Shown here: positions 5,698 to 42,841 of the stretch, piece after piece
Numbering within the stretch: position 1 is the stretch's first letter
Layout of the letters: every line of letters starts with the position of its first letter
NCBI GenBank assembly: GCA_040879165.1
Contig: JBBDKV010000027.1
Coordinates: forward strand, 18,283 to 63,792
Direction of reading: 5' to 3'
DNA length: 45,510 nucleotides
Origin: Patescibacteria group bacterium
Lineage (GTDB): Bacteria; Patescibacteriota; Microgenomatia; UBA1400; PJMF01
Notes under the pieces: generated by a model
The model's input: the letters and a program-made list of their open reading frames with translations, nothing else
Database searches by the model: none
Told to the model about the DNA's origin: nothing
Translations under genes and position numbers: made by a program

Positions 5698-5748
5698 AAA
5701 CTTTTTTTTTAAGCTGCTAGCAATAAAAAGGTAAGAAAAACCAAACTA

Positions 5749-5901: not shown

Positions 5902-5963
5902 AAGAACGGTAGTATACCAGACAATGCCGCAGAAGTCTTATTTTGTTTTTATGCTTAAAAAAA

Positions 5964-7088: not shown

Positions 7089-7381
7089 ATCTCTTTTCTC
7101 TTTCTGGCTCTCTTTCTCTCTATAATAATAAATTAGTTGTAATAGTAGTAGGTGCAGATACAATCGTGGGTAAACGCGCTTCTGTAGTCTAGTGCGTAGG
7201 AGTGGATTGAGTGTGAACCAACCAGTCCTGTTGTTTGTTGATAAGAATTGTGAATCAGTTGTTAGTTTGTGTGGGAGTTTCTAAGCTTCTACACATTTTG
7301 CATTTTTACTTCACAACTGATCTACGCTCCGCTCACAAGTTATTGACAGACTTATCCACAATTGTGAATATATAACCAAGG
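7089..7381. other. oriC: Chromosomal replication origin (oriC) between dnaA and dnaN
   Basis: Perfect DnaA box TTATCCACA 7352-7360; near-consensus boxes at 7340-7348, 7363-7371, 7249-7257, 7236-7244 and 7165-7173; DnaA-trio run TAG TTG TAA TAG TAG TAG 7134-7151 next to an AT-rich tract 7121-7133. Confidence 0.85.
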
Positions 7382-8971: not shown

Positions 8972-9020
8972 CGTACTAAATATTACTCATGCGTGAAAAT
9001 TGCTGTTGGGCAGTGCTTTA

Positions 9021-9050
9021 CTTATACACAAAGTTATTCACAAAAAGCAA
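9021..9050 (-). promoter_or_regulatory. Putative dnaA promoter overlapped by two DnaA boxes (autoregulation)
   Basis: TTATACACA 9022-9030 and TTATTCACA 9034-9042 both fit TTATNCACA; the minus strand reads TTGCTT-18 nt-TATAAG across them. Confidence 0.7.
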
Positions 9051-9124
9051 GCGGGAGTTTTTAGGATGGATTGGATTAATTGTTGGCTTTTGGTGGCTGT
9101 TGGTAGGAGCGAAAAACGCCCTAT

Positions 9125-9174
9125 ATCGTGCTCAATTTCAGATCGTGCTCAATTTCACTCGGCTGAGATTGAGC
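9125..9174. repeat. 16-bp tandem direct repeat plus an inverted partial copy
   Basis: ATCGTGCTCAATTTCA at 9125-9140 and 9142-9157; TGAGATTGAGC at 9164-9174 is a near reverse complement of GCTCAATTTCA. Confidence 0.85.
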
Positions 9175-9180
9175 GAGTGG

Positions 9181-11307: not shown

Positions 11308-11336
11308 TGTTACTATTGTAGCGAAAAGTCAGTCTG

Positions 11337-11390: not shown

Positions 11391-12941
<1,551 letters not shown>

Positions 12942-13074
12942 GGGCAGAGCTGCTTGCGAGTTTTGAATACAATCTTGAACCGGAACCCGCAAGTTGCTAC
13001 GTGATTCATCTTAGCTGGTTTTGAGGGTCGCTGCAAGGATAAGCAGGTGTGCGCGGTGGCACGCTGTGTCGCTG

Positions 13075-20220: not shown

Positions 20221-20415
20221 GGTTTATCTGGTTGTGGTTGCCTGGTTCTAGAAGGGCTAATCAAGTTGCTGGCGCAACTACTAATTGTAACGCTCCCACA
20301 AGTGAATGAAGCTATTATAGCTGTAGTTGTGGGGGCGGGGCTAGTGACGGGAGCGAGCGGGGTAATAGGGCTGAAAAAGGTGTGGAAATACTCGATTTAT
20401 AGTATAATTCAAGGT

Positions 20416-23400
20416 ATGAGTACGCAAGAAACCGGCAATACCCCCAGTGGGTCAGAAACTGGCAAAACTCCTGAGCAGCAACCTCCGCTGACTCCTGAGG
20501 AGGCTGAGGCAAGGCTTAATGACTTAAGAGAGAATTTTGACTTGGGTTTTTATTCAGCTGATGAGGCGTTGCAAGTGCTTAGCGCTGATCTTTCTGAATT
20601 TCGAGCGGCGAGAGTAAGTTGGTCTAATGATAAGCAGGTTGAGGTGGGTAAGCTGGCAAAGCAGGTGAGGGAGGAATTGAATCAAGCATTGAATGGCGAG
20701 ACCACAACCCAACCTTCTGAAGCTAGCTCACAAAAATCTCCCGAAGAGGAGCAAGTTATTGACTTGAATGCTTTGGATGAGGTTGTTGCGCTTAGAGAAT
20801 TGGTGACAAAGTACAACTCACTAATTAGTAGCGCTTCAACAGGAGGTGTTTTTGATCCCAGACTTGAAAGTGGAGAATCTCCGTTGGTTGAGTTGGTCAA
20901 CGCAATCAATGCTGCTGAAGATGCTTTGTCAGTTTTTGCATCTCCATCAACAACTCTGGATCAGATAAGAAAAAGACGGGAAATTTTAAACACCGACATT
21001 AAAGGTGCTCAGATGCTGGTTGACCAATTTTTAACGCATATTGATGCCGTAGATGAAGGTTTGTTTTCAAACTGGAGAGATGAGTTTGTCAGTTCTACTA
21101 CAACAACAGGGCAGAATCTCGACAGGGTTCGCGGCTATGAAAAAACCGACCTCTCAGTTTTAGACTCAACTACTGCGGCTAATGAGGTTTCTGATCTTGA
21201 AGTAATAAAACAATTCATGCAGTCTCAGCTCGATGGAGTGGAGTCAAGATATGACTCGAGCTTACTTAAGCAGCTTGGCGAAGCAGTACCTGGAGCCGTT
21301 ATAGATCCTTTGTTAAAAAAACAAACTCTTTTCTTAGAAGAAAAGATCAGCGAAATTCAAAGCCAAATAGATAGAAGAAACAAGCGCATTGAAGAGCTTG
21401 GTGAACAAGGAGCAAGCTTAGCAGAAAAAAATAGATTGCTCGCAGAGTGGAGAGTCGACATTGATCCCTTGGCAAGCGCTATTGAGGCAATACTTAACCC
21501 CACCACCCCTCTGGGAGAATTGTACAACTCAGACATTCGAGCGCTAAAAAAGGAATTAATTTCTCAGGAGGATAATTTATTTGAATATTTAAAAAAGGAT
21601 GCGAGCAATACCCTTCTTCATGAAGAAATCAGTCGTTTGCTGATAGACTTAGAGCGCGCCAAAAAAAACGCGGTAGTAATTGAAGAAATTGACCCAAATG
21701 ATGCTTGGGACACTTGGATGAAAGTAGAGGACTGGATTAAGATAGGTGAAACATGCGACGACGATGATGTTCGCGAGCGATCTGAGCGAAGAGCGCTCAA
21801 GGCTATAGTTGATTCTTTTACAGAAAAATTGTGGAGAGAGCCAAACGCTCATGGAGAGTCTGGGTACTTGGAGTTTTTAAACTGGGATATTCAAAAAGGA
21901 GCTGACAAGCTTCTACTGGATCAAATAATTGACTTTTTCCCTGGAGATCAAAACGAACTCAGAAATAAAATCAAATTTTTGTCAGCTGCAATAACTGGAG
22001 GAATGAGTTGGCAGCACAATATTGCAGAGACAGAAGGTGGTCCTCACCCAAACGTAATGGAGCATATAAAAAAACATGTATTTGCTGGATCTGATTGGCA
22101 AAAGATTGCCGAGTTTCAGGCTTTGCAAGAGGGGGAAAAGCCATTTGGAGATTTAATTTTTGAAGGACTTAATCACTATACTGGTTGGAATAAAAAGTAT
22201 GTCTTGTTAACCAACCCAGAAAGAACAAAAATAAGAAATGAAGTTCTTGGTAAAATTCGAACTGAGGTTATTGCTATTCCTTCAGAGTCTGAGTTAAAAC
22301 AATATTTGCGGCAAGTCGAAAAAGGTGCAAAAGCGAGCTTAAAAACCAAGGTGAGCGACATCCAAGACTCGCGATTTGCCGAATTGTATCAAAACGCCGC
22401 TGGAGGTGACTACGACGTGTTTATTGAGCAAGTTGCCAATTTAATCTCACTGGCCGACATTAAGACAGCAGAATCTAAGAAACAAAAGAAATATGGAATA
22501 TTTCCGCTTGCAGATATTGGAAATGTCAACTTTTCTATAGACGCATTTGGCAACAGAACTAGCAATGTAGAAAAGTATAGAACTGAAATAGCCATAGCTA
22601 TTGGTCTGTACAACATAGGGCTTCCTGGCGAATATGATCCTCAAACAAGGGAGATGGTTGACCCAACATCTGGGGCAAGAACAGCTGTATCAAATGCAGA
22701 CCTTAAGAGAGGTTTCGAATCTGGTAAATCTGCGGAACTCATTTCCTTTCATGTATATCAAACTCATTTGGGGTCATCCAACGATGACAACGTTACCTTC
22801 CAGGCAAGAACAAAGCCCACTAGGCTAAGATTTACTAGGTACTATAGAAACAAATATTCGGGCCAAGAGGGAGTTTACAATAAGGATGAATTTGGATCAT
22901 TGCTTCCAGACCTTTTTCAATTTATGGGCGCTGATGGTAAGTCATTAAAAAAATTATTTGGCGATAGGTCGAATCGGTTGAACGTAAATTATGAGCGCAT
23001 GAACACCAACATGAAGGGGCTTTATTTGGAGATTTATAGCTACGCAGTTAAAATATATGAAGTTTTAGCATCGGGACTTCAAACGCTCGAAGGTTTTCAT
23101 TTTGATAAGCTTGGCGAGCATGTGGCAGTAACTGAAACGTCCTTGCAACAACAGCTAAATATTGACATAAGCGCAATTGGCGCACTTACGGCATTTTGGA
23201 GATCAGTTTTGGGTTATTGGTTGGATGGACGACTTGTTGTTGATAAGAAAGATCTAGACACAGGTTTCTACGACATTGATTATTGGCAAAATGTCCCAGG
23301 AACAACTGCGTATACACCAATCTTGGCTAAAAAAATGTTTACAATGGCTCCTGCGGACTATCAGGTGTTTCTTGAACAAGTTAAAGAAGGGGATAGTAGG

Positions 23401-23691
23401 AAAGTCGTTAAAGAATTGCAAAAGGCTATGCTGACATCGTTTACAGTTGCAAGCCTGCTCATGTTAGATAGAGCTGAGTTAACTTTGGCAGAAGTTGAAG
23501 CAATAGTATATGCATACTCCAAACAATCTAAACATGGCATTAGGCAGCAAGGTGCCGGCGGCGAAGATCCAATTCCAGGATATGGTTTTACTGAAGAAGA
23601 GGTCATAGGTATGCTTGACCAGGCGAAAAGAATTAGGAGAGATTTTGGCTATGTTATTGAAACGTTTTTATCCTCGCAATCAAGATATTAA
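20416..23691 (+). CDS. Large hypothetical protein (1091 aa), helical/coiled-coil, no signal peptide
   Basis: Long ORF; start reassigned to ATG 20416 (MSTQETGNTP), which avoids overlap with the M23 gene and sits 7 nt after TATAAT (20403-20408). Confidence 0.8.
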   Translation: MSTQETGNTPSGSETGKTPEQQPPLTPEEAEARLNDLRENFDLGFYSADEALQVLSADLSEFRAARVSWSNDKQVEVGKLAKQVREELNQALNGETTTQPSEASSQKSPEEEQVIDLNALDEVVALRELVTKYNSLISSASTGGVFDPRLESGESPLVELVNAINAAEDALSVFASPSTTLDQIRKRREILNTDIKGAQMLVDQFLTHIDAVDEGLFSNWRDEFVSSTTTTGQNLDRVRGYEKTDLSVLDSTTAANEVSDLEVIKQFMQSQLDGVESRYDSSLLKQLGEAVPGAVIDPLLKKQTLFLEEKISEIQSQIDRRNKRIEELGEQGASLAEKNRLLAEWRVDIDPLASAIEAILNPTTPLGELYNSDIRALKKELISQEDNLFEYLKKDASNTLLHEEISRLLIDLERAKKNAVVIEEIDPNDAWDTWMKVEDWIKIGETCDDDDVRERSERRALKAIVDSFTEKLWREPNAHGESGYLEFLNWDIQKGADKLLLDQIIDFFPGDQNELRNKIKFLSAAITGGMSWQHNIAETEGGPHPNVMEHIKKHVFAGSDWQKIAEFQALQEGEKPFGDLIFEGLNHYTGWNKKYVLLTNPERTKIRNEVLGKIRTEVIAIPSESELKQYLRQVEKGAKASLKTKVSDIQDSRFAELYQNAAGGDYDVFIEQVANLISLADIKTAESKKQKKYGIFPLADIGNVNFSIDAFGNRTSNVEKYRTEIAIAIGLYNIGLPGEYDPQTREMVDPTSGARTAVSNADLKRGFESGKSAELISFHVYQTHLGSSNDDNVTFQARTKPTRLRFTRYYRNKYSGQEGVYNKDEFGSLLPDLFQFMGADGKSLKKLFGDRSNRLNVNYERMNTNMKGLYLEIYSYAVKIYEVLASGLQTLEGFHFDKLGEHVAVTETSLQQQLNIDISAIGALTAFWRSVLGYWLDGRLVVDKKDLDTGFYDIDYWQNVPGTTAYTPILAKKMFTMAPADYQVFLEQVKEGDSRKVVKELQKAMLTSFTVASLLMLDRAELTLAEVEAIVYAYSKQSKHGIRQQGAGGEDPIPGYGFTEEEVIGMLDQAKRIRRDFGYVIETFLSSQSRY

Positions 23692-26704: not shown

Positions 26705-29700
26705 CTAGCCTAGGCAAGTCGAGTCGTATGGATACGGATAGCCGGCAGGTTGAGGAACGGGCTCTGTTTCAAGCGCATCCACCAGCCATCTCCAAAGGTT
26801 CCAGACATATTCTCCTTGATCTCTGCCATCCTGAAAGCGATTCCAGGTTTGGTGGTAGGAGTTATCTCCTCTGATAGCAAATGTTCGAACAAACTCCTCT
26901 TTATCATCATAATACTTTTGCATACCAGTCCACAGTGCAAGGCGACAAGCAGAGTCGGCGGCGGCGGGTTCATTAACTGGACTACTGAAGTCTAATCCTG
27001 CTCTGTTTTCATCTGTAAAAGTTGGTGGTTGGTGAAGGCAGCGAGTTAGTCCTTCTGCATTTTGCTTGCGCCACAACTGCCAAGATCCATCTGATAGCTG
27101 ACCAGTAGTGTTGTCTTTGATGGCTGTGGTAAATTGAAACGTTCCAACCGCGTAGGCATCGTTGGGTATCGGAATATTGTGATACTCCTTGTTTTCAGAG
27201 TGCGCAATGGCTAACAACAAGAGAGGGTCGCATTGGTGTTTTGCAGAAGCAGCATTAATGCTCTGCCAAAGCTCTCGAGGGGGAAGTTCAAAATCTGGTT
27301 CAGTGCCATTCCAGTATGGAAAGTCATTATCCTCTGTGGGCGTCCCTATCACTTTCCCAAACAGCCGCAAGCTGTCCAAGTTGGGACTATAGTTGCTGCA
27401 CTGCTTGACGTTAATTGTGTTGGCAAAAATTGAGGTGCGACGCCCGCCCCCACTGTATGTCCGAGAATGAGTGCACATTGTATGAGAGGAGGTACCTGGC
27501 CCTCGCAGTCTTCTACCCACTAATTCTAGATATAATTGATAGCCTTTTCTTTCTTGTGTATCACCACCACCGTCATTCAACATGTTAATGTAGTCTCGCC
27601 AAAAGCCACAGCCGCCCTCATCGGAACAATCTCCGGCACGCCCGCCGCCGCATTCATTATTGTAATCTTGCGTGACATAGGTAAACGGATTGCCGTCCGA
27701 GTCTACTAACGGACATCCATCCCATTCATCGATGCGATTAATACTGCGCACCGCATTGCCATTTTCATCGTAGACAGTGCCACCGCCCTCCATGGCAGGC
27801 TGAAGATTCATGTCAATGCAGGCTCCATCTCCACATCCTGCTTGGGTAAAATCGATCACGTAGCCGAGATTATGGTGCAGTGGTTCATCGGGTCCTAGCT
27901 CATGATGCATGGTATACGTCTCGTTGCTAATGCAAATATTGTTTACACCCATATTGTGATAGATCCAGTAGTAACCAGGAGCCATGCTCAAATCGAAACT
28001 CACCTCAGCACCACTACCTACGGTTTCCATAATTGGCGCGTCTTCCCACCGTGGATCATTTACATCAGGCGGCGGAGTAGTATCTGGTGGAAGCTTGCGC
28101 AATTGCAGTCTGCGCGCCGAAGTTTGAGTTCCCGTGCAGCCTAGCTGGTTGCCGGGGTTGTTGGCAACTATACTACCGCCACCCGTTTGGATTAACGTCA
28201 GTCCATCAATCATTCTCATGGTAAGTTTTAGGCTGCAGCGTAAACCCACTGAATTGCCACCACCACCTTCGCCAAAGAAAATCTCGCGTCCTTGCTCTTG
28301 AGACATTGTTTCGGCATCTCTTACATCATCAGGTGAGGTTCCGATGAGATTGCGGGTTCGATTTGCAAAAAAGACAAACCGATCAGTGTCTTGTTCGGTC
28401 AAGTCCCTATAAATTCTATGTTTTGATCCCTCACAATAAGCGGGTTGGTCAAATGCCGTATCTCGAGGAGGACCGCCGCATTGATCAAGTAAAAATTCCT
28501 CTGTTGTCCGACACCCTCTGAGATATTTATGCGCAAGGCTATCAAAGCGATTAAACGCAAGTTGTACGTGATGCGTCCAGAACCCCAGTCGGGCGCCGAA
28601 AAATTGCGCTGGACCTTGAGAACTTTGATTAGTGAGCTCAAAACTTTTCTCTGCACAAGTGCGTATTCCGGTGATTGGATCAATGGTGCAATCTAGATAG
28701 TCAGTGAAGTCGTGTGTAACTGTGCCAGCATCGAGTCCTACGTCATCGTTGAGTACGTTGAAGCGATCTTTGATTGATGGGTCATCGGCAATGGCCTCAT
28801 GTTGTTGCTCGGTTAAAAATGTTTGTGATAAAACGGCCTCGAGTGTTTCGAGGTCGTAGCCCATAGGATAAACTAAGTAGAAGTTGAGTACTGTACAGTC
28901 ACCGCCAGGAGCTTGGCCTTGCTCGCCAGGAGCGCAGCCCTTGTCGGGAAAGGTGTCGGGATTGGCGTTAATTTGAAAGACGGTGTCAAAGGGAACAGCG
29001 TCTCGTGGAGAGCCATCTTGGCCAACGCCCCAAAGTTGCTGCAAAATCAGTTCTCCATACTGAACTTGAAATTGATTTGGTCCTCCCGGAGCCCAAAAGC
29101 GGGCAGGGTCACCAATTTCGTTGACCTGTTCGCTGGTAATCAATGAACAGTTGACGCGATCTGGATCCTGCTCAGCCGCGCCATTAATCATGCTTACTAC
29201 GGCATAGCCCAGATGGTCATTACAAGCAGGAGCTCCTTCACCATTAGGAGGAGTACCACGCAAGCAGTTAATGAGAGGGCCCGCTCCGCTGGCTCCAGAT
29301 ACAGCACCCAACATAGCTTCGCGCTCCTGAGTACCCTCTAGGTCATATGTTTCTGCCATTTTTCTGGGAATGAGCACGTTGCGAGAGAGCGTCATGGGGT
29401 CATCCCAATACGTGTGGCCGCTTTCTGTTTGTTCTTGTTTTCGGTTGGCTTCATTGCGGACAACTTGTTGGTAGCTGAGTGGCACGCCTTGGGCAGTGGT
29501 GGCTGTTTCATCTTGCCAAAGCGAGCCCTTGTTTGTGCCAATGTCTGGAATTTTGAAGGCAATCAGTAATACGTCATGGAGGGGATCTGCTTGATCTGAA
29601 TGACTGAAGAAATTGAAAATATGATCTGTTTGTATCGGACGCTGGGCAACTGCAGCCACCAAGAAAGCAATACGATACGCTCGATCCAGATGCATTGATG

Positions 29701-31360
29701 CCGTCAACATGCCGGTGCGCAACCTATTTCCGCCTTCACCCACCACAATCATTTTGCAATTTTCCAGGTGGTCTTGACTGCGAGCGAAGCCTTTGTATTC
29801 GTTGAGCAGCTGTCGAACGCGATAATCAGTACCAGGTACCTGCCGATTGAGTAACGAACAGTCATTAGGATCAAATAATTTGTTACACATTTCTTCTTGA
29901 GAGTAGAGGGTTTGTGCTGTTTGAGCACAGCGCTGGGTTTCGGAAAGGAGAGAATTGATGGGGGCTGACTTAATTTCTGCTCGGCTAAAACGGGTTTCCT
30001 CTAGCTCCTTAAAGCCAAAATATTCCTCAAGATCTGCCTTGAGGACGCGCTTGCGCTCGCTGTCGCGGAAAATTGGGGTTTCAGCGTTGGTGTAGTCAAT
30101 TACTTGGGTCGAAGTGATGGGGAGGCCGCCTTGGCCAATGAGTCGAGGTTGTAGGCCGGCGCGAATGTTGTCTAGATACTCTGGCAGCGCCCCGCTCATT
30201 TGTGGATTGACGGTGTAGGTGGGGGCTGCGCAATATGCTTGATAGCCTTGTCTGACTAGACTTTCGCGAATAACCCCATAGTCTTCTGCTCCAGGCTGAA
30301 GTCCGAGAATGGGGCTGATGTAGTAGTCTTCATCGCGAATGCCTATATCAGGCAGTCCAAGTTGATCTCGTACAGCAGGATTTGTTAAGTCTTGGTCGCT
30401 TGGTGGGCTAGAAGTGCTGTCCCAGGGTCCGGTTTCTGTAATGTATATTGGCAAGTCAAATAAAGATTCGATATTCTGGTCATTCCAAAAACCCTGAATT
30501 GATTGTCCTGCAGGATAAATATTTCCAGCAATACCATCGAGGCACCCGTCTGCCGCTGAAATGGGAGCATTTGCGTCTTTGAGTGCTTGTACTAAACCAG
30601 GAAAGGACGGAGAGGTCATATTAAAAGCTGGCGAGAGCAAGCGAACATTACTGGGAATTCTGCCATCTCTTTTGGCGTCACAGACAGTATTCATGTACGA
30701 TGCTAGCTTAGGCGCTACGCACTCAGCCCAGCCTGACCCACCGCTGTATGTTCCGCAATTACCTCCGCCAACAGGTCCGGTATCAAACGCCCAGGTTTCT
30801 GCATCAGGCTCATTGGGTCCGACGATAACATAGTAGGTCTTGCCCTGTGAGTCAATTTGATTGAGGAATGCGATCAAGCGATTTGGATCAGTGTTTTCTG
30901 CAGCATTACTCCCTGGTCCGCCGTCATACCCATTACTTCCAGCAGTACCAAAGCGCACAATGATTGAGAGTGGTTCAGCGATAGCCGCGCTTACCGCGCC
31001 GGGGTTACTGTATTCTGCAATTTCTAACGCCCACCCCATTCTTGCGTGACTGTGCGTTAGGTCATAACTGCCAGATTTGAAAAATGTCGCAAAGTTAGCA
31101 CCAAAATCCTCACATTGCACTTCAGGGCAAATTTCACGAAACTCATCTACCGTTAGTACGTGCTTTTGAAAATTAGGATCAGGGTTGTCACCCCAGATAT
31201 TAAAGAAGAGCACTGCTTGTGAGCGACTGCGCAGAAAATCAATGTCAGCTTTAAGATCAGGAAGCGAAGTCTGAGCGCTGGTCGGCTGAAGCAGCAGCAT
31301 ACTTGTGAACACACACAATACCAACGCCAACAGCCAAGGGCGAAAATTCCTCAAAGTCAT
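26705..31360 (-). CDS. Secreted 1551-aa protein: N-terminal clan GH-A-like glycoside hydrolase domain, Cys-rich middle, C-terminal lysozyme-like/SLT domain
   Basis: Signal peptide ending PTSAQ; IIVRF, VIVGPNEPD (acid/base), LLSPAF, GIAGNIY, PIYITETG (nucleophile); C-terminal SINAASAKHQCDPLLLLAIAHSE and AVGTFQF. Confidence 0.75.
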   Translation of the reverse strand: MTLRNFRPWLLALVLCVFTSMLLLQPTSAQTSLPDLKADIDFLRSRSQAVLFFNIWGDNPDPNFQKHVLTVDEFREICPEVQCEDFGANFATFFKSGSYDLTHSHARMGWALEIAEYSNPGAVSAAIAEPLSIIVRFGTAGSNGYDGGPGSNAAENTDPNRLIAFLNQIDSQGKTYYVIVGPNEPDAETWAFDTGPVGGGNCGTYSGGSGWAECVAPKLASYMNTVCDAKRDGRIPSNVRLLSPAFNMTSPSFPGLVQALKDANAPISAADGCLDGIAGNIYPAGQSIQGFWNDQNIESLFDLPIYITETGPWDSTSSPPSDQDLTNPAVRDQLGLPDIGIRDEDYYISPILGLQPGAEDYGVIRESLVRQGYQAYCAAPTYTVNPQMSGALPEYLDNIRAGLQPRLIGQGGLPITSTQVIDYTNAETPIFRDSERKRVLKADLEEYFGFKELEETRFSRAEIKSAPINSLLSETQRCAQTAQTLYSQEEMCNKLFDPNDCSLLNRQVPGTDYRVRQLLNEYKGFARSQDHLENCKMIVVGEGGNRLRTGMLTASMHLDRAYRIAFLVAAVAQRPIQTDHIFNFFSHSDQADPLHDVLLIAFKIPDIGTNKGSLWQDETATTAQGVPLSYQQVVRNEANRKQEQTESGHTYWDDPMTLSRNVLIPRKMAETYDLEGTQEREAMLGAVSGASGAGPLINCLRGTPPNGEGAPACNDHLGYAVVSMINGAAEQDPDRVNCSLITSEQVNEIGDPARFWAPGGPNQFQVQYGELILQQLWGVGQDGSPRDAVPFDTVFQINANPDTFPDKGCAPGEQGQAPGGDCTVLNFYLVYPMGYDLETLEAVLSQTFLTEQQHEAIADDPSIKDRFNVLNDDVGLDAGTVTHDFTDYLDCTIDPITGIRTCAEKSFELTNQSSQGPAQFFGARLGFWTHHVQLAFNRFDSLAHKYLRGCRTTEEFLLDQCGGPPRDTAFDQPAYCEGSKHRIYRDLTEQDTDRFVFFANRTRNLIGTSPDDVRDAETMSQEQGREIFFGEGGGGNSVGLRCSLKLTMRMIDGLTLIQTGGGSIVANNPGNQLGCTGTQTSARRLQLRKLPPDTTPPPDVNDPRWEDAPIMETVGSGAEVSFDLSMAPGYYWIYHNMGVNNICISNETYTMHHELGPDEPLHHNLGYVIDFTQAGCGDGACIDMNLQPAMEGGGTVYDENGNAVRSINRIDEWDGCPLVDSDGNPFTYVTQDYNNECGGGRAGDCSDEGGCGFWRDYINMLNDGGGDTQERKGYQLYLELVGRRLRGPGTSSHTMCTHSRTYSGGGRRTSIFANTINVKQCSNYSPNLDSLRLFGKVIGTPTEDNDFPYWNGTEPDFELPPRELWQSINAASAKHQCDPLLLLAIAHSENKEYHNIPIPNDAYAVGTFQFTTAIKDNTTGQLSDGSWQLWRKQNAEGLTRCLHQPPTFTDENRAGLDFSSPVNEPAAADSACRLALWTGMQKYYDDKEEFVRTFAIRGDNSYHQTWNRFQDGRDQGEYVWNLWRWLVDALETEPVPQPAGYPYPYDSTCLG

Positions 31361-31422
31361 ATGGATTATTATACTGGGAAATAAGGTGTGAGGCTACGCT
31401 GATTCTTTTTTGAAAAAATTGG

Positions 31423-31899
31423 TTAATTAAAACCTCTAGAGCCCCCTCCACCAGCATCTGAATCAGGGGCTGTGGGTGCTTGGGTTCCCTCCCCAGAAAC
31501 CCCTGAATCTGAGCCTGGAATAATAAACTCTGTCAAATCTAAGCCAGTAAAGCTTGACAATAAGTTGAGAATAATAAAGCCACTCAAAGCTACTACAATA
31601 CCAATGATCGCGAATGTGATGGTATTACGAGCAGTTTCAGCCCCCTTTGGATTACTGCCAGATAACATCCAGCGAAATGCACCAATAATGAGCATGATAA
31701 AAGCCGCTAGGCCAATAATTGCGAGAATGACACTTAAAAAGTTGCCCAGCAGGCACTCAAGACCTTGTAGGGTAGCTACATTTTCTTGATAGACACATTC
31801 GCCTCCCCACTCGGCTGTTTGTGCTGAGGCAGAAACAGGCGTAAATAAGCTAAAAGCAACAAGCATCAATAATGAAAGGAGGCGAGCTAGTTTTTTCAT
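31423..31899 (-). CDS. VirB2/TrbC-like T4SS pilin (array member 1)
   Basis: Signal peptide ending SASAQ; TM-GAFRWMLSGSNPKGAETARNTITFAIIG-TM. Confidence 0.85.
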   Translation of the reverse strand: MKKLARLLSLLMLVAFSLFTPVSASAQTAEWGGECVYQENVATLQGLECLLGNFLSVILAIIGLAAFIMLIIGAFRWMLSGSNPKGAETARNTITFAIIGIVVALSGFIILNLLSSFTGLDLTEFIIPGSDSGVSGEGTQAPTAPDSDAGGGGSRGFN

Positions 31900-31975
31900 G
31901 TAGCATTATCTTATCATGTCTACGTCGGTGGAAGTCAGTGTAAGCTGCTTGCCTAGACACTGAGATTTAGGTGCG

Positions 31976-32524
31976 TCAAGAATTTTCAACATTTATTCGG
32001 CGCACATTGGTCAGCGCGTCATTAATTGATTCAAATCCTAAAATGTATGCTACAAATTGAGTAACAGCATATGCTGCGCTCACGATCAGCACACCGACAA
32101 AAGCATTAATAATTCGTTGGCGCGCGCTTTCGGTTTTTGACGAATCTCCACCGGAGGTAATCCATTCAAATCCAGCGGTAATAAATTGAAAAAACGCAAG
32201 TAATAGTACAATAACCATTACAGCTGACAGTAGCCAATTAATATATTGAGTTAGACTAGACGCAAAACCTTGTGGTGGAGTATTGGCAATACCTGAAAGG
32301 CTAGCACTTCTAGTAGTAGAGATTGTATCCTGATTAGCTGAGGCTAGTTCGTTAGTTGGTGAAGTATCGTCTTGTCCCTGCATTCCAATTTGGACTTGGT
32401 CTCCTGTGCGCTGTACTTCTTGAGACTGTTGATCTAGAGGTAGGCTTTTTTGAGCAGATACAGTAAAGACAAAAGAATGCGAAGCGAAAATGAAAAAAAC
32501 AAACACCAACAATAATCTACTCAT
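31976..32524 (-). CDS. VirB2/TrbC-like T4SS pilin (array member 2)
   Basis: Signal peptide ending VSAQ; AGFEWITSGGDSSKTESARQRIINAFVG. Confidence 0.85.
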   Translation of the reverse strand: MSRLLLVFVFFIFASHSFVFTVSAQKSLPLDQQSQEVQRTGDQVQIGMQGQDDTSPTNELASANQDTISTTRSASLSGIANTPPQGFASSLTQYINWLLSAVMVIVLLLAFFQFITAGFEWITSGGDSSKTESARQRIINAFVGVLIVSAAYAVTQFVAYILGFESINDALTNVRRINVENS

Positions 32525-32605
32525 AGTAAATTATTATAACACGTTAAGAACCATTAAATGACGAATCACTCAGCTTCAACCGTTTGGTCCAGTTCTACCT
32601 GAGCC

Positions 32606-32998
32606 TTAACCGCCAATTCTACCGATGCCATCAATTGCTTCTTGTAGACCTCCAAAGCCGAGAATGTATGCAACGAACTGGACTAGGGCATAAGCAGCTG
32701 CGAGAATAATAATTCCAACTACAGCAGCAGTAATTTTGTTTCGAGCTTCTTCAGTTTTACTTTTATCGCCACCAGAAGTAATCCACTGAATACCACCCCA
32801 AATAAGATAAAAGAATACGAGTAGTAGGGCAACCACCATGATGAAATTAAGAGCAAAGGTGATAATTCCACCTATGTCCTCTGCCCAACCAGTACCTACC
32901 TCTACAGTGCCGACTTGGGCAGCCACTGGAGTTGCAAGAGTTGCAAGCATGCCAGTTAGGGCAATTGAAGTTTTAGAAAAAAGTGAGATTTTGTTCAT
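32606..32998 (-). CDS. VirB2/TrbC-like T4SS pilin, probable major pilin copy A (130 aa)
   Basis: Signal peptide ending PVAAQ; WGGIQWITSGGDKSKTEEARNKITAAVVG. Confidence 0.9.
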   Translation of the reverse strand: MNKISLFSKTSIALTGMLATLATPVAAQVGTVEVGTGWAEDIGGIITFALNFIMVVALLLVFFYLIWGGIQWITSGGDKSKTEEARNKITAAVVGIIILAAAYALVQFVAYILGFGGLQEAIDGIGRIGG

Positions 32999-33488
32999 AT
33001 AGTCCTGTATTTTACCGTATATTTATGCCTAATCACTCAGCCTTAAGTGCCTCGTCCAGCTGTGCCCGAACCTGGACCGCCACCACTAATTCTACCGATG
33101 CCATCAATTGCTTCTTGTAGACCTCCAAAGCCGAGAATGTATGCAACGAACTGGACTAGGGCATAAGCAGCTGCGAGAATAATAATTCCAACTACAGCAG
33201 CAGTAATTTTGTTTCGAGCTTCTTCAGTTTTACTTTTATCGCCACCAGAAGTAATCCACTGAATACCACCCCAAATAAGATAAAAGAATACGAGTAGTAG
33301 GGCAACCACCATGATGAAATTAAGAGCAAAGGTGATAATTCCACCTATGTCCTCTGCCCAACCAGTACCTACCTCTACAGTGCCGACTTGGGCAGCCACT
33401 GGAGTTGCAAGAGTTGCAAGCATGCCAGTTAGGGCAATTGAAGTTTTAGAAAAAAGTGAGATTTTGTTCATATAGTCCTGTATTTTAC
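32615..33488. repeat. 401-bp direct repeat (32615-33015 and 33088-33488) covering both major-pilin copies and their -10/leader
   Basis: No mismatch found on base-by-base reading. Confidence 0.95.
33043..33471 (-). CDS. VirB2/TrbC-like T4SS pilin, probable major pilin copy B (142 aa, Gly-rich tail)
   Basis: Start reassigned to 33471 (MNKISLF) by identity with copy A; tail SGGGPGSGTAGRGT. Confidence 0.9.
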   Translation of the reverse strand: MNKISLFSKTSIALTGMLATLATPVAAQVGTVEVGTGWAEDIGGIITFALNFIMVVALLLVFFYLIWGGIQWITSGGDKSKTEEARNKITAAVVGIIILAAAYALVQFVAYILGFGGLQEAIDGIGRISGGGPGSGTAGRGT

Positions 33489-33510
33489 TCTGTTCTGCAA
33501 AGCTATGCAA
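33482..33510 (-). promoter_or_regulatory. Sigma70-type promoter of the major pilin pair
   Basis: TTGCAT (33510-33505), 17-nt spacer, TAAAAT (33487-33482), 10 nt before ATG. Confidence 0.65.
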
Positions 33511-33613
33511 ATTTTTCTTGACTTTAATCATAGTAGCATTATTTTTTTAGCTTTTGCAAGTGGAAAATACTTCATATTAGCTTGAATCATACCTCTGTAT
33601 TAAAACGCATCAA

Positions 33614-34042
33614 TTACGTTGAGAATAACGGAATGGTAGTAGGCTCTGGTTGATCAGGTGGGGCAGTTGTGTTAGTTTGCTCTCTTTGCGAAAAGTTGCC
33701 AAACTCTAATATCTCCACCCCAAGTATGTACTGCACAAACAGTATTAGTGCGGTGACTGAGGCAAGGATAATCATTCCAATTATGGCATGCAACATTCTA
33801 TTGCGGGCATTTTGCAATTTGCTACTATCTCCCGCTGATGTTATCCACTCAAATGCTCCCCAAATTAGATACAGGAGAAGGACGAGAAATGAGACAGTCA
33901 TTAGTATTGACATTAGGTTACCAAGCCAGCTGCCAAACGACGCGCCAAAATCGGTGGTGGTGCTTGAGCCCTGAAGCGTATCTCCCTGACCTTGAAAGTC
34001 TAGAACGCGGTCTGTTTGCGCTAATTGTTGTATTTTTTGCAT
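33614..34042 (-). CDS. VirB2/TrbC-like T4SS pilin (array member 5)
   Basis: WGAFEWITSAGDSSKLQNARNRMLHAIIG; short leader MQKIQQLAQ. Confidence 0.85.
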   Translation of the reverse strand: MQKIQQLAQTDRVLDFQGQGDTLQGSSTTTDFGASFGSWLGNLMSILMTVSFLVLLLYLIWGAFEWITSAGDSSKLQNARNRMLHAIIGMIILASVTALILFVQYILGVEILEFGNFSQREQTNTTAPPDQPEPTTIPLFST

Positions 34043-34048
34043 AGTTGT

Positions 34049-34408
34049 TTAGTCCACTGTTCTGAGGACTGGTTGTAAGATATTAAACTCATCGCCAAAG
34101 AATAAGTAACTGATAAATCCGATCAGCGTATAGGCTGAAACGAGAAGTAATAATCCGATAAAGGCATGAAACATCCGGTTGCGCGCCGATTGCAGTTTGC
34201 CACTATCTCCAGCAGACGTAATCCACTCAACGGCTCCCCAGAGGAAGTAAGCAAGGACAAGTAACGCCCCCACGGTAATGATAGTGTTCCAAATCATTAC
34301 AAAATAATTGGTAAAAAGCGTGCCTTCTTGGGCTCCAGTAGTATCGCTGCCAAAATCGCCCGTAACGGGGTTCGTAAGTTGCGCTAGTAGTTGGGGTTGT
34401 GTTTGCAT
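34049..34408 (-). CDS. VirB2/TrbC-like T4SS pilin (array member 6)
   Basis: Start reassigned to 34408 (MQTQPQLLAQ); WGAVEWITSAGDSGKLQSARNRMFHAFIG. Confidence 0.85.
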   Translation of the reverse strand: MQTQPQLLAQLTNPVTGDFGSDTTGAQEGTLFTNYFVMIWNTIITVGALLVLAYFLWGAVEWITSAGDSGKLQSARNRMFHAFIGLLLLVSAYTLIGFISYLFFGDEFNILQPVLRTVD

Positions 34409-34451
34409 TTTTTTAATTCCTAGATCAAAGCTCTCCGGTTCTGGCTCCTGC

Positions 34452-34823
34452 TTACGGACCAACAATGGTTCGTAGCATGTCGGCTGGATTAAGAATTTCA
34501 AGGCCCAGCACAGCACCGACCAAGCCAACTATGCCGTATGCAGCAACGACAACAATCATGCCAATGGTGCTTTGAATAATACGATCCCGAGCAGATTGAA
34601 TTTTGCCAGAATCACCGCCAGCGGTGACCCAGCTGACTGCAGCGATTAAAAAGTTGAATATAAAATAGACGGCCGCTATTACTGTTAACAATCCAATAAT
34701 GGTGGAAAGAAAATTTTCCATATTGCTCAACACACCATCTGTGTCGGTGTTGTCACTCCATTGCTGGGTGGGAGGCTCAAATGATCCGAGATTGGCTAGT
34801 GGTGTGGGAATTAGGGATGGCAT
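34452..34823 (-). CDS. VirB2/TrbC-like T4SS pilin (array member 7)
   Basis: AAVSWVTAGGDSGKIQSARDRIIQSTIG. Confidence 0.85.
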   Translation of the reverse strand: MPSLIPTPLANLGSFEPPTQQWSDNTDTDGVLSNMENFLSTIIGLLTVIAAVYFIFNFLIAAVSWVTAGGDSGKIQSARDRIIQSTIGMIVVVAAYGIVGLVGAVLGLEILNPADMLRTIVGP

Positions 34824-34861
34824 AGGTGTATTATAGTATGTTTTTTGTGTTGTGACGAATG

Positions 34862-35449
34862 TTAGACAGCTCCAGACAGTGTTGGGCGTAGAATAAAGGT
34901 TGGATCACCAAAAATAATCCAGCCAATCAAGCCCGCCAGAATGTACGCACTGGCAATAATTGTTACACCAATTACAGAAGTTGTTAAAAGTTCTCTGACT
35001 TTTTCGTAGGTGCCGGTGTCACCTGCTGAAGAGATAAACATATATGCTGCCCTGAGAATGTTAAACATTACCCAAATTCCCGCAATGATGGTAAAAAGTG
35101 TGAGGAGGTTAGAGATGAAGAGGACGATGCCGATGCCGTCACCTGTTCCGTCTGTTCTGACATTAAATAAATTAACAGAGCTTGGTCTACGCACTCCTCC
35201 TAAAACAGAACTACCAACGGAGCCTGGACCGCAACGATTTGTACTTTGTTGTAAAGTGGCCACTCCTCCAGATTGATGCTCTACAAGTCGGCAAATATAT
35301 CCTTGTGAATTACACTCACCATGAGCTACTCCCTGACATTCTGGTGCGACTACATGTTGAGTTTCTTGCGCTTGTATACTTGTTTCAAAAATGAAGCATG
35401 ATAACAAGAAGACCAGCAAAGTTTTAGAAATTATTAGTGCAATTTTCAT
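34862..35449 (-). CDS. VirB2/TrbC-like T4SS pilin with small four-Cys N-terminal module (array member 8)
   Basis: Signal peptide ending SIQAQ; AAYMFISSAGDTGTYEKVRELLTTSVIG. Confidence 0.8.
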   Translation of the reverse strand: MKIALIISKTLLVFLLSCFIFETSIQAQETQHVVAPECQGVAHGECNSQGYICRLVEHQSGGVATLQQSTNRCGPGSVGSSVLGGVRRPSSVNLFNVRTDGTGDGIGIVLFISNLLTLFTIIAGIWVMFNILRAAYMFISSAGDTGTYEKVRELLTTSVIGVTIIASAYILAGLIGWIIFGDPTFILRPTLSGAV

Positions 35450-35859
35450 AATCTCGGACTCAAAATAAACGCCGGATCACCAAAGAAGATGTAGCTGATC
35501 AAGCCAGTAATAGTGTACGCCATCACAATCAGAACCAAGCCAATCACGCTTTGAGTGATATTTTGGCGAACTTTCTCATGGGTGCCTGCATCACCGCTTG
35601 AGGCAACGTAAGTCATGCCAGCAATAATAAAGTTAAATAATACATAAATCCCCATGATGACAGTAAAAATAGAAATCATATTTGAGATGAAAAAAATAAG
35701 GGCAATGCTATCTGGGTCGCCAGATCTATTTTGATATTCTTCTACTCCTGGAGGTGTTTCAATTGTGCCGATCGCTTCCATAGGGGTAGCTGCCTGAGCA
35801 ACCGACAGCGTTGCAGCGAACCCAAGTCCAATTAAAAGTGAAATGAATGTTTTTTTCAT
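35446..35859 (-). CDS. VirB2/TrbC-like T4SS pilin (array member 9)
   Basis: Signal peptide ending VAQA; AGMTYVASSGDAGTHEKVRQNITQSVIG. Confidence 0.8.
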   Translation of the reverse strand: MKKTFISLLIGLGFAATLSVAQAATPMEAIGTIETPPGVEEYQNRSGDPDSIALIFFISNMISIFTVIMGIYVLFNFIIAGMTYVASSGDAGTHEKVRQNITQSVIGLVLIVMAYTITGLISYIFFGDPAFILSPRL

Positions 35860-35865
35860 AAATCT

Positions 35866-36240
35866 TTAAATCGGAATATCAACTCCGGTTACCACTTGAA
35901 CTATTTGTACAATCCAGTATGCACAAAACATCACCACAGCACCAGCCACGGCTGTAGTAATAATTTTTTTAGCTTCTTCTTTGCCTTGAGAACCAGATTG
36001 AATAAACTTAAATCCAGCGTAAAAAATCAGGAGAAAGAGAATGACGCCACCAATGACAAAAATATTTTGAACAATGAGATTGACCAAAAATGCGGGCGAT
36101 GTGTAAACGGCACTGACGGGAGTATTGTCTGAAAGACAGAGCACATCCCCAAGATTTACACCACCACCACCAAGCTCATCAGCTCCGACGCAGGTTTCCT
36201 GAGCATATGCTTTTGGCACCAAAATATCCATGATAGACAT
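35866..36240 (-). CDS. VirB2/TrbC-like T4SS pilin (array member 10)
   Basis: Start reassigned to 36240 (MSIMDILVPKAYAQ); YAGFKFIQSGSQGKEEAKKIITTAVAG. Confidence 0.8.
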   Translation of the reverse strand: MSIMDILVPKAYAQETCVGADELGGGGVNLGDVLCLSDNTPVSAVYTSPAFLVNLIVQNIFVIGGVILFLLIFYAGFKFIQSGSQGKEEAKKIITTAVAGAVVMFCAYWIVQIVQVVTGVDIPI

Positions 36241-36284
36241 GTTCGTATTATACGCATCTTGGGGCGTGCTGTACAATTGCCAGT
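36241..36284. promoter_or_regulatory. Back-to-back -10 elements for the pilin array (minus) and the ECF sigma operon (plus)
   Basis: TATAAT on minus (36252-36247) 6 nt before ATG 36240; TACAAT on plus (36272-36277) 7 nt before ATG 36285. Confidence 0.65.
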
Positions 36285-36866
36285 ATGTCTGTTTTGAAAC
36301 AAAAACGTGCAAGCGCCCAACAGCAAAAAGAAGATCGACAAATTTTAAGCCTGCTTCGCCTGGGTGATCCCGATGCGGTAGCGTATTGGCTGCAGCATTA
36401 CGAGCAGTGGCTGGAGCGATTTGTAGCTACAAAAGTTTCAGAAAAATCAGATGTCCAAGAATTGGTTCAAGATATTTTTATGAGTTGTTTGCAGCATTTG
36501 CCTTTGTACCGGGGAGACGCCGCTATTCGGACATGGATGATCTCGGTAGCTCGTCATGAAATTGCAGATTATTATCGAAAAAAATACGCCAAAAAAGCGC
36601 TGAAATTACTACCTTTGTCCGAGTTGTTGTTGTCTGCTAAAGTGAACGATGCACACGATGTGGCTGAACAAGTTGGGGCGGTGTTGAGTCGAATGTCAAC
36701 GCGTTCAAGGGAGTTGCTGATGCAAAAATACGTTGACGGTAAGGCTGTGGCGACAATTGCTCAGGAACAAGACTCTAAAGAAAAGGCAGTCGAAGCAAGA
36801 TTGTATCGCGCCAGAAATGAATTTCGCGAGCAGTATTCACTAGTGCTGGATTTGGAAGAGCTGTAA
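36285..36866 (+). CDS. ECF-type (sigma70 group 4) RNA polymerase sigma factor
   Basis: Region 2 DVQELVQDIF...RTWMISVARHEIADYYRK; region 4 RELLMQKYVDGKAVATIA...VEARLYRAR. Confidence 0.92.
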   Translation: MSVLKQKRASAQQQKEDRQILSLLRLGDPDAVAYWLQHYEQWLERFVATKVSEKSDVQELVQDIFMSCLQHLPLYRGDAAIRTWMISVARHEIADYYRKKYAKKALKLLPLSELLLSAKVNDAHDVAEQVGAVLSRMSTRSRELLMQKYVDGKAVATIAQEQDSKEKAVEARLYRARNEFREQYSLVLDLEEL

Positions 36867-40506: not shown

Positions 40507-41661
40507 CTAAAGAATCGCTACCCCAAAAACCACTTGAACAATTTGAATTATCCAATACGAAGAAAAAAGAATGATGAAGCCAACGATGGCGTTAGTGACG
40601 CGCTGCCTTCCTGCTTCTACGCCCTTGCTGGTTGCAGCGCTCGTGAGCATTTCAAATCCTCCCCAGACTATCATGGCAAATAAAATCAGCCCCGCTAATG
40701 GAAAGGCAAAATCGAGGATGCGACTAACGATGCCACCAGGGGAGGAGAGTTGATTTCTGACTGGACTATTTCGAAGTGGATTTAGATTACTTAAGGTTTC
40801 CGCATCCGGTCCGAACACATTGAATTCTGGATTACCTGGGTCTTCGGAATCAACACCCCCAGCGTTCGTTTGATTACCTCCACTCGCACCTGACTCATTT
40901 GTTCCTCCCGTGCCTCCTGAGTTGCCGTCCGCGCCTGTCCCACCATTACCGGCAGAAGGTTGCGTAGTTGCTGGGGCTGTGGAGGAGCACCTACCATTAC
41001 TATTCCATCCACAACACATCTCGGTGTCTATGCGCGTCGCAATTGCCTCTCTGCCTGTAGTGAAGTCGGTGCACTCACAACTATCATTGGATTCAGAATT
41101 TGGCGTCCATGTGTCGCCACATCCGTATCTATTATTGATGGTTTGCTCATCTGGAGGGTTGGCGGTGCTGGATGTTTGAGAATTATAATTACCCAAATAG
41201 CAGAGATTAGAACCACTGCCTTGCTCATACACATATACATACCGATACGGATCAGAGTTGGAGGTATTACCTTGAGGAGAAGGGAGTGTGAGAGAGATGA
41301 CCTGTCCGTTTTCTACATTTTCAACATTGAAATCATCAGATGTAGATAGTGAGCAGTTTGTTCCAATTCCAAAAGCGCAAACTGAATTTCCTGCGCTATG
41401 AAAGGCTTTAATATGAATTGCTCGAAGTCTTTTTACCTGATCAGCGTCTGTAATGCGAACGTCGACTTGGTGGGAATTGGTGGATGTAATGTTTTCGTCT
41501 AAGCCAGACTCAACAACAAGACCAAGATCACTACATGCAGTATCCCCGCTGTTTTCATTTTGAGCATACACAATATGAAGTGGTGTTAAAAAAATAGTGA
41601 ACAAAAAAACAGACAGAAAAATGAGCAAACTTTTTTGTATTAGCTTGGAAAGATAGCGCAT
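40507..41661 (-). CDS. Pilin-domain protein with large Cys-rich and Gly-rich extracellular head (384 aa)
   Basis: Start reassigned to 41661 (MRYLSKL); signal peptide ending VYAQ; C-terminal WGGFEMLTSAATSKGVEAGRQRVTNAIVG. Confidence 0.8.
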   Translation of the reverse strand: MRYLSKLIQKSLLIFLSVFLFTIFLTPLHIVYAQNENSGDTACSDLGLVVESGLDENITSTNSHQVDVRITDADQVKRLRAIHIKAFHSAGNSVCAFGIGTNCSLSTSDDFNVENVENGQVISLTLPSPQGNTSNSDPYRYVYVYEQGSGSNLCYLGNYNSQTSSTANPPDEQTINNRYGCGDTWTPNSESNDSCECTDFTTGREAIATRIDTEMCCGWNSNGRCSSTAPATTQPSAGNGGTGADGNSGGTGGTNESGASGGNQTNAGGVDSEDPGNPEFNVFGPDAETLSNLNPLRNSPVRNQLSSPGGIVSRILDFAFPLAGLILFAMIVWGGFEMLTSAATSKGVEAGRQRVTNAIVGFIILFSSYWIIQIVQVVFGVAIL

Positions 41662-41665
41662 GTGT

Positions 41666-42841
41666 TTAGCCTCCTGTTCCAGTTTCAGCTCCAAAGCCAG
41701 GTATTTTGAATATTGTGACACCGATAAATTGCAGTATGACAACAGAAAAGATGATAAAAAGCAGCCCTACGACAGCAGCAGTCATCATTTCTTTAGCCTG
41801 GTTAGCGCGCTGAGGATCGCCTTGAGATGTGGTCAGAAGAAAGCCAGCTGCGATGGTGGTAAGCAAGGCAATGCCGCCCCCAAGTCCAATGCCTAATTCA
41901 ATTAAGCGTTGAGTAGTGGGAACAATTTGGTTTTCAATGCAGCCGATGGCGGTCCAGGTTTTGTTGTCCCCACTTGTGGTGCATGCTTCACACTTATTTT
42001 TGAGTTCTCCGTCTGGGATTTGATTGCAGAGTTCAAAGGCGGTTGCTTGATTGCTACCTGGTGGCGGCTGCTGGCTTTCTTCAGTACAGGGAATGCTGCT
42101 AATAGCCATTGGTCGATTGCAGGTGAACGAAGGTGCAAAGCTAGGGATATTAAATGCATTTCCTGAGAATACATTGATATTATAAGTAGATCCTGGATCC
42201 AGGCCTTCTGAAGACACAACCCTTTCATGAGTTCCAGTGTTTCCAAATGATATGGTTTCTTGTCTTGTAGATAATACAAGTTCGGCATTACCTGTGAATG
42301 GGGTATTATCGCCTTGATGCCATGCTCTTGTGACGATAGTAACGTCACTTTGATTATCTATGCAACTTGGATTTTCAATTTGATTCTGAATATGGACAAC
42401 CTCACACACTACTGAATCCACCACGGTGTATCTAAGAACATCGCAAACTTCTCCGCCAGGTGCAACTACCTGCAGTGTTTTTTGCCCATTTTCGCTCAAA
42501 ACACTTGGATGATTTTGACGATTTACTTGGAAAGAGATAAGCTGGTTTTCAGCAGTTGCTGTTGAGATGGGGACTGGGCTTCCGGGAGAATTTCTAAATC
42601 GCAAACCGTATTCACCTCCATTTTCCAATCTGTTTCCTTGTAATGCTAAAACGAATGAATCTATAGAATTTGCTGGAATGTTTTCGTTAGGTGCTGGAGC
42701 AGTGTTGCTTGCGGCATAATTGAGTGCAAATCCAGCTGGATCTGTGCACGAAACAACTGATTGCGCGTAAGTTACAGGAACTGTTTGAAAATATGATATA
42801 AATAAGCTCAAAAAGACGATGATAGTGAACAGTTTTTTCAT
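41666..42841 (-). CDS. Pilin-domain protein with large beta-rich, Cys-containing extracellular head (391 aa)
   Basis: Signal peptide ending TYAQ; WTAIGCI; C-terminal AGFLLTTSQGDPQRANQAKEMMTAAVVG. Confidence 0.82.
   Translation of the reverse strand: MKKLFTIIVFLSLFISYFQTVPVTYAQSVVSCTDPAGFALNYAASNTAPAPNENIPANSIDSFVLALQGNRLENGGEYGLRFRNSPGSPVPISTATAENQLISFQVNRQNHPSVLSENGQKTLQVVAPGGEVCDVLRYTVVDSVVCEVVHIQNQIENPSCIDNQSDVTIVTRAWHQGDNTPFTGNAELVLSTRQETISFGNTGTHERVVSSEGLDPGSTYNINVFSGNAFNIPSFAPSFTCNRPMAISSIPCTEESQQPPPGSNQATAFELCNQIPDGELKNKCEACTTSGDNKTWTAIGCIENQIVPTTQRLIELGIGLGGGIALLTTIAAGFLLTTSQGDPQRANQAKEMMTAAVVGLLFIIFSVVILQFIGVTIFKIPGFGAETGTGG

Follow-up and report, generated by a model that had tools for sequence, protein, structure and literature searches.

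A pilin array within a type IV secretion locus

The DNA considered here, a window of 45,510 nucleotides (45.5 kb) from a Patescibacteria group bacterium, carries on its minus strand ten tandem pilin genes of the PF18895 (T4SS_pilin) family, p1 to p10 (31423..36312; identified from ORFs and profile), of which p7 and p8 are twins. Seven of the ten products score above the gathering cut-off of the family, and three lie slightly under it (24.4 and 25.3 bits, with near misses at 34862-35449 and 35446-35859). Between paralogues of the array identity is 15-44%, and between the twins it is 99%. The gene p9 (31976-32524, minus strand), with 51% identity to the twin over 93 aa, is an older paralogue of the twin lineage, and a pilin domain also forms the C-terminus of two longer proteins encoded at 40507-42841.

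Other components of a type IV secretion system are recognized by profile on the same minus strand: a VirB4-like ATPase of the CD1110 family (9181-11307; NF045971, 385 bits against a cut-off of 325), a TrsD/VirB4-N-like protein (11391-12992), a PrgI(VirB3)-like protein (13075-14361) and a 1575-aa protein with a C-terminal M23 peptidase (15493-20220). The VirB4-like and PrgI-like genes thus share the strand of the twins, about 20 kb away, and the secretion genes directly adjoin dnaA, dnaN, rnpA and yidC. The scanned ORFs contained no match to a relaxase or coupling-protein family. [quoted passage not shown] The present locus is a Patescibacteria type IV secretion locus with a pilin array of this already published kind. 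In the sole species tested the secretion system and pilin array are essential, with function unknown (PMC10633639, PMC12857230, PMC11665869), and even for cultured Patescibacteria a review treats the pilus as no more than a possibility (PMC12857230).

The twin genes differ in length. Copy A (32606..32998, minus strand) encodes 130 aa ending in GRIGG, followed by a TAA at 32606-32608, and copy B (33043..33471, minus strand) encodes 142 aa ending in GRISGGGPGSGTAGRGT, again followed by TAA. The 142-aa form of copy B has a letter-for-letter match in the ESM Atlas. A 162-aa ORF that opens at ATG 33531 was rejected as the true start of copy B, as the extension is absent in copy A and in 40 relatives. 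Both products, at 35.6 bits (copy A) and 35.4 bits (copy B), clear the PF18895 gathering cut-off of 26.6, which upholds the reading of the pair as pilin genes in a preliminary description of this DNA. PF04956 (TrbC/VirB2) scores 18.5-18.7 bits for the two, under its cut-off of 27.9 and with E about 0.002, and this relation is a resemblance, not membership. PF18895 is carried by all 120 relatives listed, the best 120 of 451 matches; where a source name is given, it is Pacebacteria or Patescibacteria, classed under Minisyncoccota in the NCBI taxonomy.

A Kyte-Doolittle scan, a heuristic method, finds a signal-like N-terminus and hydrophobic stretches at residues 39-75 and 87-118, and the loop TSGGDKSKTEEARNK between the two hydrophobic helices has four K/R residues. 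The predicted topology is that of a VirB2-type hairpin, with both termini predicted to lie outside the membrane. A profile search of PDB sequences gave nothing significant, the best match being FliL at E = 0.29. The ESM Atlas model of the pilin (pTM 0.48) has TM scores of 0.54-0.63 to PF18895 and 'TrbC/VIRB2 family' clusters, and the neighbours of the pilin in the Atlas are PF18895 clusters.

How do the twins stand among their relatives? The twin is 61% identical to its counterpart in two syntenic loci (L001 and L002), compared with 29-46% for the other eight paralogues, and its core is nearly invariant across 73 aligned sequences. The preliminary description had spoken of major-pilin genes. 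The twins are indeed the best-conserved paralogue, and we infer from this conservation that they may form the main structural subunit of a pilus. Only one copy of the twin gene is present in the syntenic locus L001, and among the three loci found by the related-genome scan (L001-L003) none is closer than 61% and none has a twin. A tree built from 47 proteins joins the twins as sisters (99/90); their next relative, P0002, is about 70-71% identical. The tree fits conversion between older tandem duplicates without proving it, the duplication being present in no relative, and the twins fit a lineage-specific duplicate. A partial parallel is found in another genome, where two proteins (P0010 and P0013), apparently adjacent by their locus tags (ending 01630 and 01625), have an identical core of 72 residues and different ends; these two are not resolved as sisters in the tree.

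Identical bodies and diverged 3' ends

On the minus strand the two copies match exactly through 401 nt, at 32615..33015 in copy A and 33088..33488 in copy B, with an offset of 473 nt. The block opens with GTAAAAT, 17 nt ahead of the ATG, and closes with codon 128 (ATT); it holds a -10-like box together with the first 128 codons, start codon included. The alignment recovers the identity first noticed in the letters of the sequence, with the same -10 box, leader and 128 codons. The -10-like TAAAAT of copy A is at 33009-33014, a 10-nt spacer away from the ATG at 32996-32998, and that of copy B is at 33482-33487, with the ATG at 33469-33471. As direct repeats they lie next to each other, with 72 nt between them, and no other direct repeat of at least 35 nt exists within the window. 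Tandem Repeats Finder listed nothing, the twin pair included.

Upstream of copy B there is a promoter-like TTTGCA-18-TAAAAT (33511..33482), a consensus match only. Of this promoter copy A has the -10 box alone, since the DNA ahead of it is the tail of copy B. No terminator-like site was found behind either tail, so that copy A may be co-transcribed with copy B.

Past codon 128 the copies part. Copy A reads GGC GGT TAA, and copy B reads AGT GGT, then GGC GGT and twelve further codons. The six extra bases AGT GGT (33082..33087, minus strand), coding for Ser-Gly, are present in copy B only, right behind codon 128, and mark where the identical block ends on its 3' side; it had been thought that the body of copy B passes straight into GGC GGT, and these six bases correct that picture. 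From GGCGGT onward the tails are in register and of equal length, as the preliminary description had it. The GGCGGT segment is identical at 6/6 positions, and the 34 nt after it, both stops included, at 20/34 (14/34 mismatches), a level that about 1 in 100,000 base shuffles reaches. The similarity between the tails is beyond chance. The TAA of copy A is aligned with a CCA of copy B, from which it differs by two bases, and behind it lie nine in-frame sense codons (GSGRTGPNG) and a TGA (32576..32605, minus strand), the TGA aligning with the TAA that ends copy B.

Both tails are followed by GCTGAGTGATT, on the minus strand at 32564..32574 (3' of the copy A tail) and at 33031..33041 (3' of the copy B stop). 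Its 11/11 identity agrees with the earlier remark that the same sequence stands behind both tails; these are its two exact sites in the window, and it was not found in the related loci L001-L003. The last 15 nt before the junction are identical at 5/15 positions, all five in the first 9 nt (5/9), and there is no similarity beyond. We take the spacer between the copy B 11-mer and the start of the copy A block (33016..33030, minus strand) as the duplication junction, since it gradually ceases to resemble the DNA 3' of copy A. The complete identity of the 11-mer, amid a 3' region that is ~40-45% diverged, hints at constraint or at a second small conversion patch. An RNA element or terminator in this conserved 3' motif was considered and rejected: Rfam has 0 matches in the window, neither tail is followed by a terminator-like site, and a hairpin seen in copy A is not shared.

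The contrast between body and 3' end can be put in numbers. Mismatches amount to 0/401 in the body and 16/57 in the tail plus downstream bases (Fisher p = 4e-16). Over the nine aligned tail codons there are 3 synonymous and 7 non-synonymous changes (pS 0.35, pN 0.38, ratio 1.1). The body has ~97 synonymous sites, at which ~34 differences are expected at the pS of the tail, and 0 are seen; the common ancestor of the bodies is therefore much younger than that of the 3' ends. Within a single duplicated unit, then, divergence changes abruptly, as expected of gene conversion between tandem paralogues. It is also apparent that divergence has not been aimed at the coding tip, because the non-coding bases past the 11-mer (5/9) are about as diverged as the tail. 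As to the proposal that Gly and Ser positions of the tails are kept through synonymous changes, three Gly-Ser-Gly codons do differ only synonymously, which is too few sites to carry the point, and the changes over the nine codons as a whole run against it.

Is a tail of either length typical of the family? We counted the residues after a conserved I/L anchor, on the basis of an alignment, in 119 relatives, the best 120 of 451 matches minus the window's own. Among these 119 the tail has 0-27 residues (median 4, interquartile range 2-7) and is rich in G, N, T and S. A two-residue tail like that of copy A is the commonest class (25/119), and 47/119 have two residues or fewer; tails of at least 14 residues, like that of copy B, occur in 4/119. 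Among these best-matching relatives, therefore, being tailless is the norm and the 14-residue tail of copy B is the outlier. The tail appears neutral and unconstrained, any length being tolerated in the family. Its Gly/Ser/Thr/Asn-rich extension would be flexible and would lie on the outside of a filament packed like VirB2, since the termini of VirB2-type pilins are on the outward side (10.1101/2022.09.25.509369).

A history for the pair and its alternatives

What sequence of events would produce such a pair? We think it probable that a tandem duplicate of the best-conserved pilin gene has had its body re-homogenised while the unconstrained 3' part drifted. The duplicated unit, about 467-473 nt of a VirB2-like pilin gene, would have begun at the -10 box, included the short C-terminal tail and ended ~20 nt past the stop. 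The tail, the position of the stop and the downstream bases would then have drifted apart, and the promoter core, start codon and codons 1-128 would recently have become identical again by intragenomic gene conversion, unequal crossing-over or re-duplication. Upstream, the conversion tract would stop where homology ends, and downstream it would stop at the 6-nt indel. The TAA of copy A would be an ordinary truncating mutation that brought the tail back to the commonest length, and the nine codons behind it a decaying untranslated remnant. The likely benefit would be one of dosage, with the main pilus subunit made from two transcription units. Some observations sit less easily with this history: the intact 11-mer, the purely synonymous differences in the Gly-Ser-Gly codons, the long tail of copy B, a pair identity far above the 54% maximum reported for arrays, and the absence of the pair from the Tandem Repeats Finder output.

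In its main lines this agrees with the preliminary description, which had proposed an old duplication with homogenised bodies; the ~34 silent differences expected and 0 seen speak for it, whether by conversion or by re-duplication. Conversion as the process is suggested by the pattern of divergence, and recombination with an allele of a different strain can give the same picture. The bodies could equally stem from re-duplication, which is equivalent in outcome. Because the repeats are direct and adjacent, unequal crossing-over with a change of copy number is as likely as non-reciprocal conversion.

One might think instead that the two tails are themselves the point of the arrangement. There would then be two isoforms of the main pilin, one short and one with a 14-residue Gly-rich surface tail, in a ratio set by recombination between the repeats through changes in copy number, so that the pilus surface is tuned to host cells. 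Several observations are congenial to this idea. The C-terminus is predicted to be outside the membrane, in keeping with the outward termini of VirB2-type pilins; the tail of copy B is among the longest (4/119) in the best-matching relatives; and the identical block ends exactly where the tail starts. Anaplasma VirB2 paralogues, moreover, vary mainly near their N- and C-termini (PMC3556328), and it has been speculated that pilin arrays help adaptation to different host strains (PMC12102498). However, the pN/pS of the tail, taken over 9 codons only, indicates neither purifying nor clearly diversifying selection, and the non-coding flank is equally diverged. Across the family the tails are low-complexity sequence of arbitrary length, and two variants are all that there are, with no further cassettes in 45.5 kb. 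We consider this explanation unlikely. A surface-variation mechanism through tailed and tailless subunits, as first suggested, is not supported, given the same pN/pS and the tail lengths of 0-27 residues among the best 120 of 451 matches, and stays a minority possibility. It is possible that the long tail has a modest effect on the surface, and its unusual length means that it could have a role.

A related suggestion is a main-subunit module driven by recombination, in which the 401-nt direct repeats let a population expand, contract and reshuffle the copies, varying the pilin dose and the ratio of tails, and so adapting attachment or exchange to host cells. To this we would give little credence.

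Could the pair be a product of the assembly? The tandem layout, the copy number or the perfect identity might reflect the assembler's handling of repeats or strain variants. An exact repeat of 401 nt exceeds the usual k-mers of short reads, the near-identical pair lies above the 54% maximum of the 441 reported arrays (PMC12102498), and the protein cluster of the twins consists of 2 sequences on 1 contig, with no independent sighting. Against this, the junction at 33016-33042, which joins the tail of copy B through the spacer to the start of the copy A block, is unique and impossible to obtain from a single-copy genome, and the sequence beyond the 3' end is different in each copy. The unique junction argues for at least two gene copies. 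The collapse of a repeat could mask a few differences in the body, and could not create the contrast with a tail that is 41% diverged. Perfect identity of the bodies could thus be slightly overstated, if small differences were collapsed by the assembler, and an artefact of the whole arrangement seems to us improbable.

Readthrough or switching at the stop codon of copy A, in which the TAA is read through or reverts and exposes GSGRTGPNG, as was first entertained, is scarcely credible: the nine open codons that end at a stop aligned with that of copy B would arise by chance in roughly two cases out of three, (61/64)^9; their pN/pS is 1.1; TAA ends more ORFs of the window than any other stop (24/35) and differs from the CCA of copy B by two bases; the copy A hairpin GCUCAG/CUGAGU (z = -2.28) is not common to copy B (z = -0.91); and the window holds no Rfam element, no tRNA gene and hence no suppressor tRNA. 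We read the TAA of copy A as nothing out of the ordinary, a truncation in an extension free of constraint, and the codons behind it as a remnant.

Two further candidates were rejected. An alternative genetic code is contradicted by the long ORFs, which are open under table 11 with TAA as the main stop. A diversity-generating retroelement does not fit the tail mismatches, which are not tied to adenine (A at 6/14 in copy A and 2/14 in copy B), and the sole reverse-transcriptase-like Pfam match is the RNase H gene at 3408-3818.

Comparison with known systems

Variation of pilins by recombination is familiar from Neisseria, where the pilE/pilS system of the type IV pilus draws variable segments from many silent cassettes. 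The likeness to the twins lies in gene conversion acting on a pilin gene. Unlike pilE/pilS, the twins encode a type IV secretion pilin, and the conversion would homogenise; nor does the window have silent donor cassettes, as no other repeat of at least 35 nt exists in its 45.5 kb.

The TrbC/VirB2 propilins, such as RP4 TrbC and the T-pilin, undergo C-terminal processing. They resemble the twins in having a short C-terminal extension that is possibly dispensable or removed. They differ in that no evidence for a maturation protease or for cyclisation was found here, and the PF04956 score is below its cut-off. Remarks on the cyclisation of VirB2-type pilins are found in 10.1101/2022.09.25.509369.

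The VirB2 clusters of Anaplasma phagocytophilum and A. marginale (PMC3556328) are a further parallel, as they likewise consist of several tandem genes with a conserved two-helix body and terminal variation, and whose copy number depends on the strain. In contrast to the present organism's array, those clusters belong to diderm intracellular pathogens and have 8-15 diverged copies, for which antigenic variation is the proposed driver. The available text of that paper describes neither bodies identical at the DNA level nor remnants behind a stop.

Among the arrays of Patescibacteria themselves, those surveyed in PMC12102498, that of Southlakia epibionticum (PMC10633639) and those reviewed in PMC12857230 are alike in having tandem PF18895 pilins, ten here against 2-11, at a site beside virB4 and dnaA/dnaN/rnpA, with no relaxase or coupling-protein family in the scanned ORFs. 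The difference is in the identity of one pair, 99% here with zero differences over 128 codons and a difference in the tail only, where the reported arrays have a mean of 25% and a maximum of 54% (PMC12102498). Given that maximum, the pair is atypical, and an assembly effect or some functional specialness is conceivable. A literature search found no description of such a near-identical pair in an array, though the supplements of PMC12102498 might list closer pairs.

The concerted evolution of tufA/tufB and of rRNA operons (PMC5485169, PMC6053082) provides a parallel in process, as there too paralogues within a genome are identical and their flanks diverged. Those genes are highly expressed and dosage-sensitive. 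The pilin repeats are unlike them in being direct and adjacent, 72 nt apart. Most likely, then, the pair is not a special switch, and is an ordinary duplicate kept uniform by recombination. It would be a case of otherwise ordinary concerted evolution in an array of known kind, as an unusually young or homogenised duplicate of the best-conserved gene. As such, a DNA-identical pair in an array may serve as a pointer to the probable bulk-subunit paralogue, and it indicates that duplication and homogenisation continue to reshape the pilin arrays of Patescibacteria, which are not a product of ancient divergence alone.

Start sites and short leaders

Do the messages of this region carry leaders of ordinary length? 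A -10-like hexamer, TAN[AT]AT, ends 4-12 nt 5' of the start codon at 9 of 35 ORF starts across the window, a set that is uncurated and reflects the longest-ORF choice, and Shine-Dalgarno-like words precede just three of the same 35. The hexamer occurs at 2.2% of random positions, so that its enrichment at ORF starts is significant (binomial p = 5e-8). Examples are the TAAAAT boxes of the twin pilin genes, copy B (33482-33487) and copy A (33009-33014), and the regions of 32533-32538, 31368-31373 and 11315-11320. The same arrangement, TACAAT, 7 nt and ATG, is found in front of a pilin gene of the related locus L001, near 6309-6325. Because -10-like hexamers are enriched near starts and Shine-Dalgarno-like words are scarce, the sequence suggests that many mRNAs in the window are leaderless or have very short leaders.

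Surroundings of the pilin array

The tails of both twins are followed by an identical 11-mer, GCTGAGTGATT (32564-32574 and 33031-33041), set in flanking DNA that is ~40-45% diverged; no further copy was found elsewhere in the window or in the related loci L001-L003. Immediately downstream of the array lies the gene for a 1551-aa protein (26705-31360, -) for which no Pfam or NCBIfam family was found, and a 1176-aa ORF occupies the equivalent position in L001 (6761-10291). Two further proteins, of 411 aa (40507-41742, -) and 391 aa (41666-42841, -), have a PF18895 pilin domain at the C-terminus, preceded by ~300 residues without a Pfam family. The two, whose ORFs share 77 nt, could represent pilin-anchored surface proteins.

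L001 and L002 have record titles that assign them to uncultured Pseudomonadales. Both have a pilin array of the Patescibacteria type, and the synteny with the window takes in a sigma factor, pilins, a giant protein and NUDIX/uppS neighbours. The Pseudomonadales label looks wrong.

Type IV secretion genes and the dnaA neighbourhood

Upstream of VirB4 (9181-11307, -) is a 533-aa ORF (11391-12992, -) with weak matches to the VirB4 N-terminal part (E = 2e-6) and to TrsD (E = 5e-5); the ORF possibly represents the N-domain of VirB4, either split off or accessory. The protein encoded at 13075-14361 (-) joins a PrgI (VirB3-like) N-terminus, matched at 26.6 bits, slightly below the cut-off of 27, to a CarboxypepD_reg beta-sandwich domain. 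A 1575-aa protein (15493-20220, -) ends in a C-terminal M23 peptidase domain. The 5' end of its gene is covered for 228 nt by a divergent 1232-aa ORF without a family (19993-23691, +), and the true starts of both are therefore uncertain.

dnaA (7382-8971) lies ~200 nt from the first type IV secretion genes and is followed by dnaN, rnpA and yidC (region 5365-11307); the GC skew switches sign near 8 kb of the window. The adjacency to dnaA and the skew switch fit the origin-proximal location of such Patescibacteria loci described in PMC12102498.
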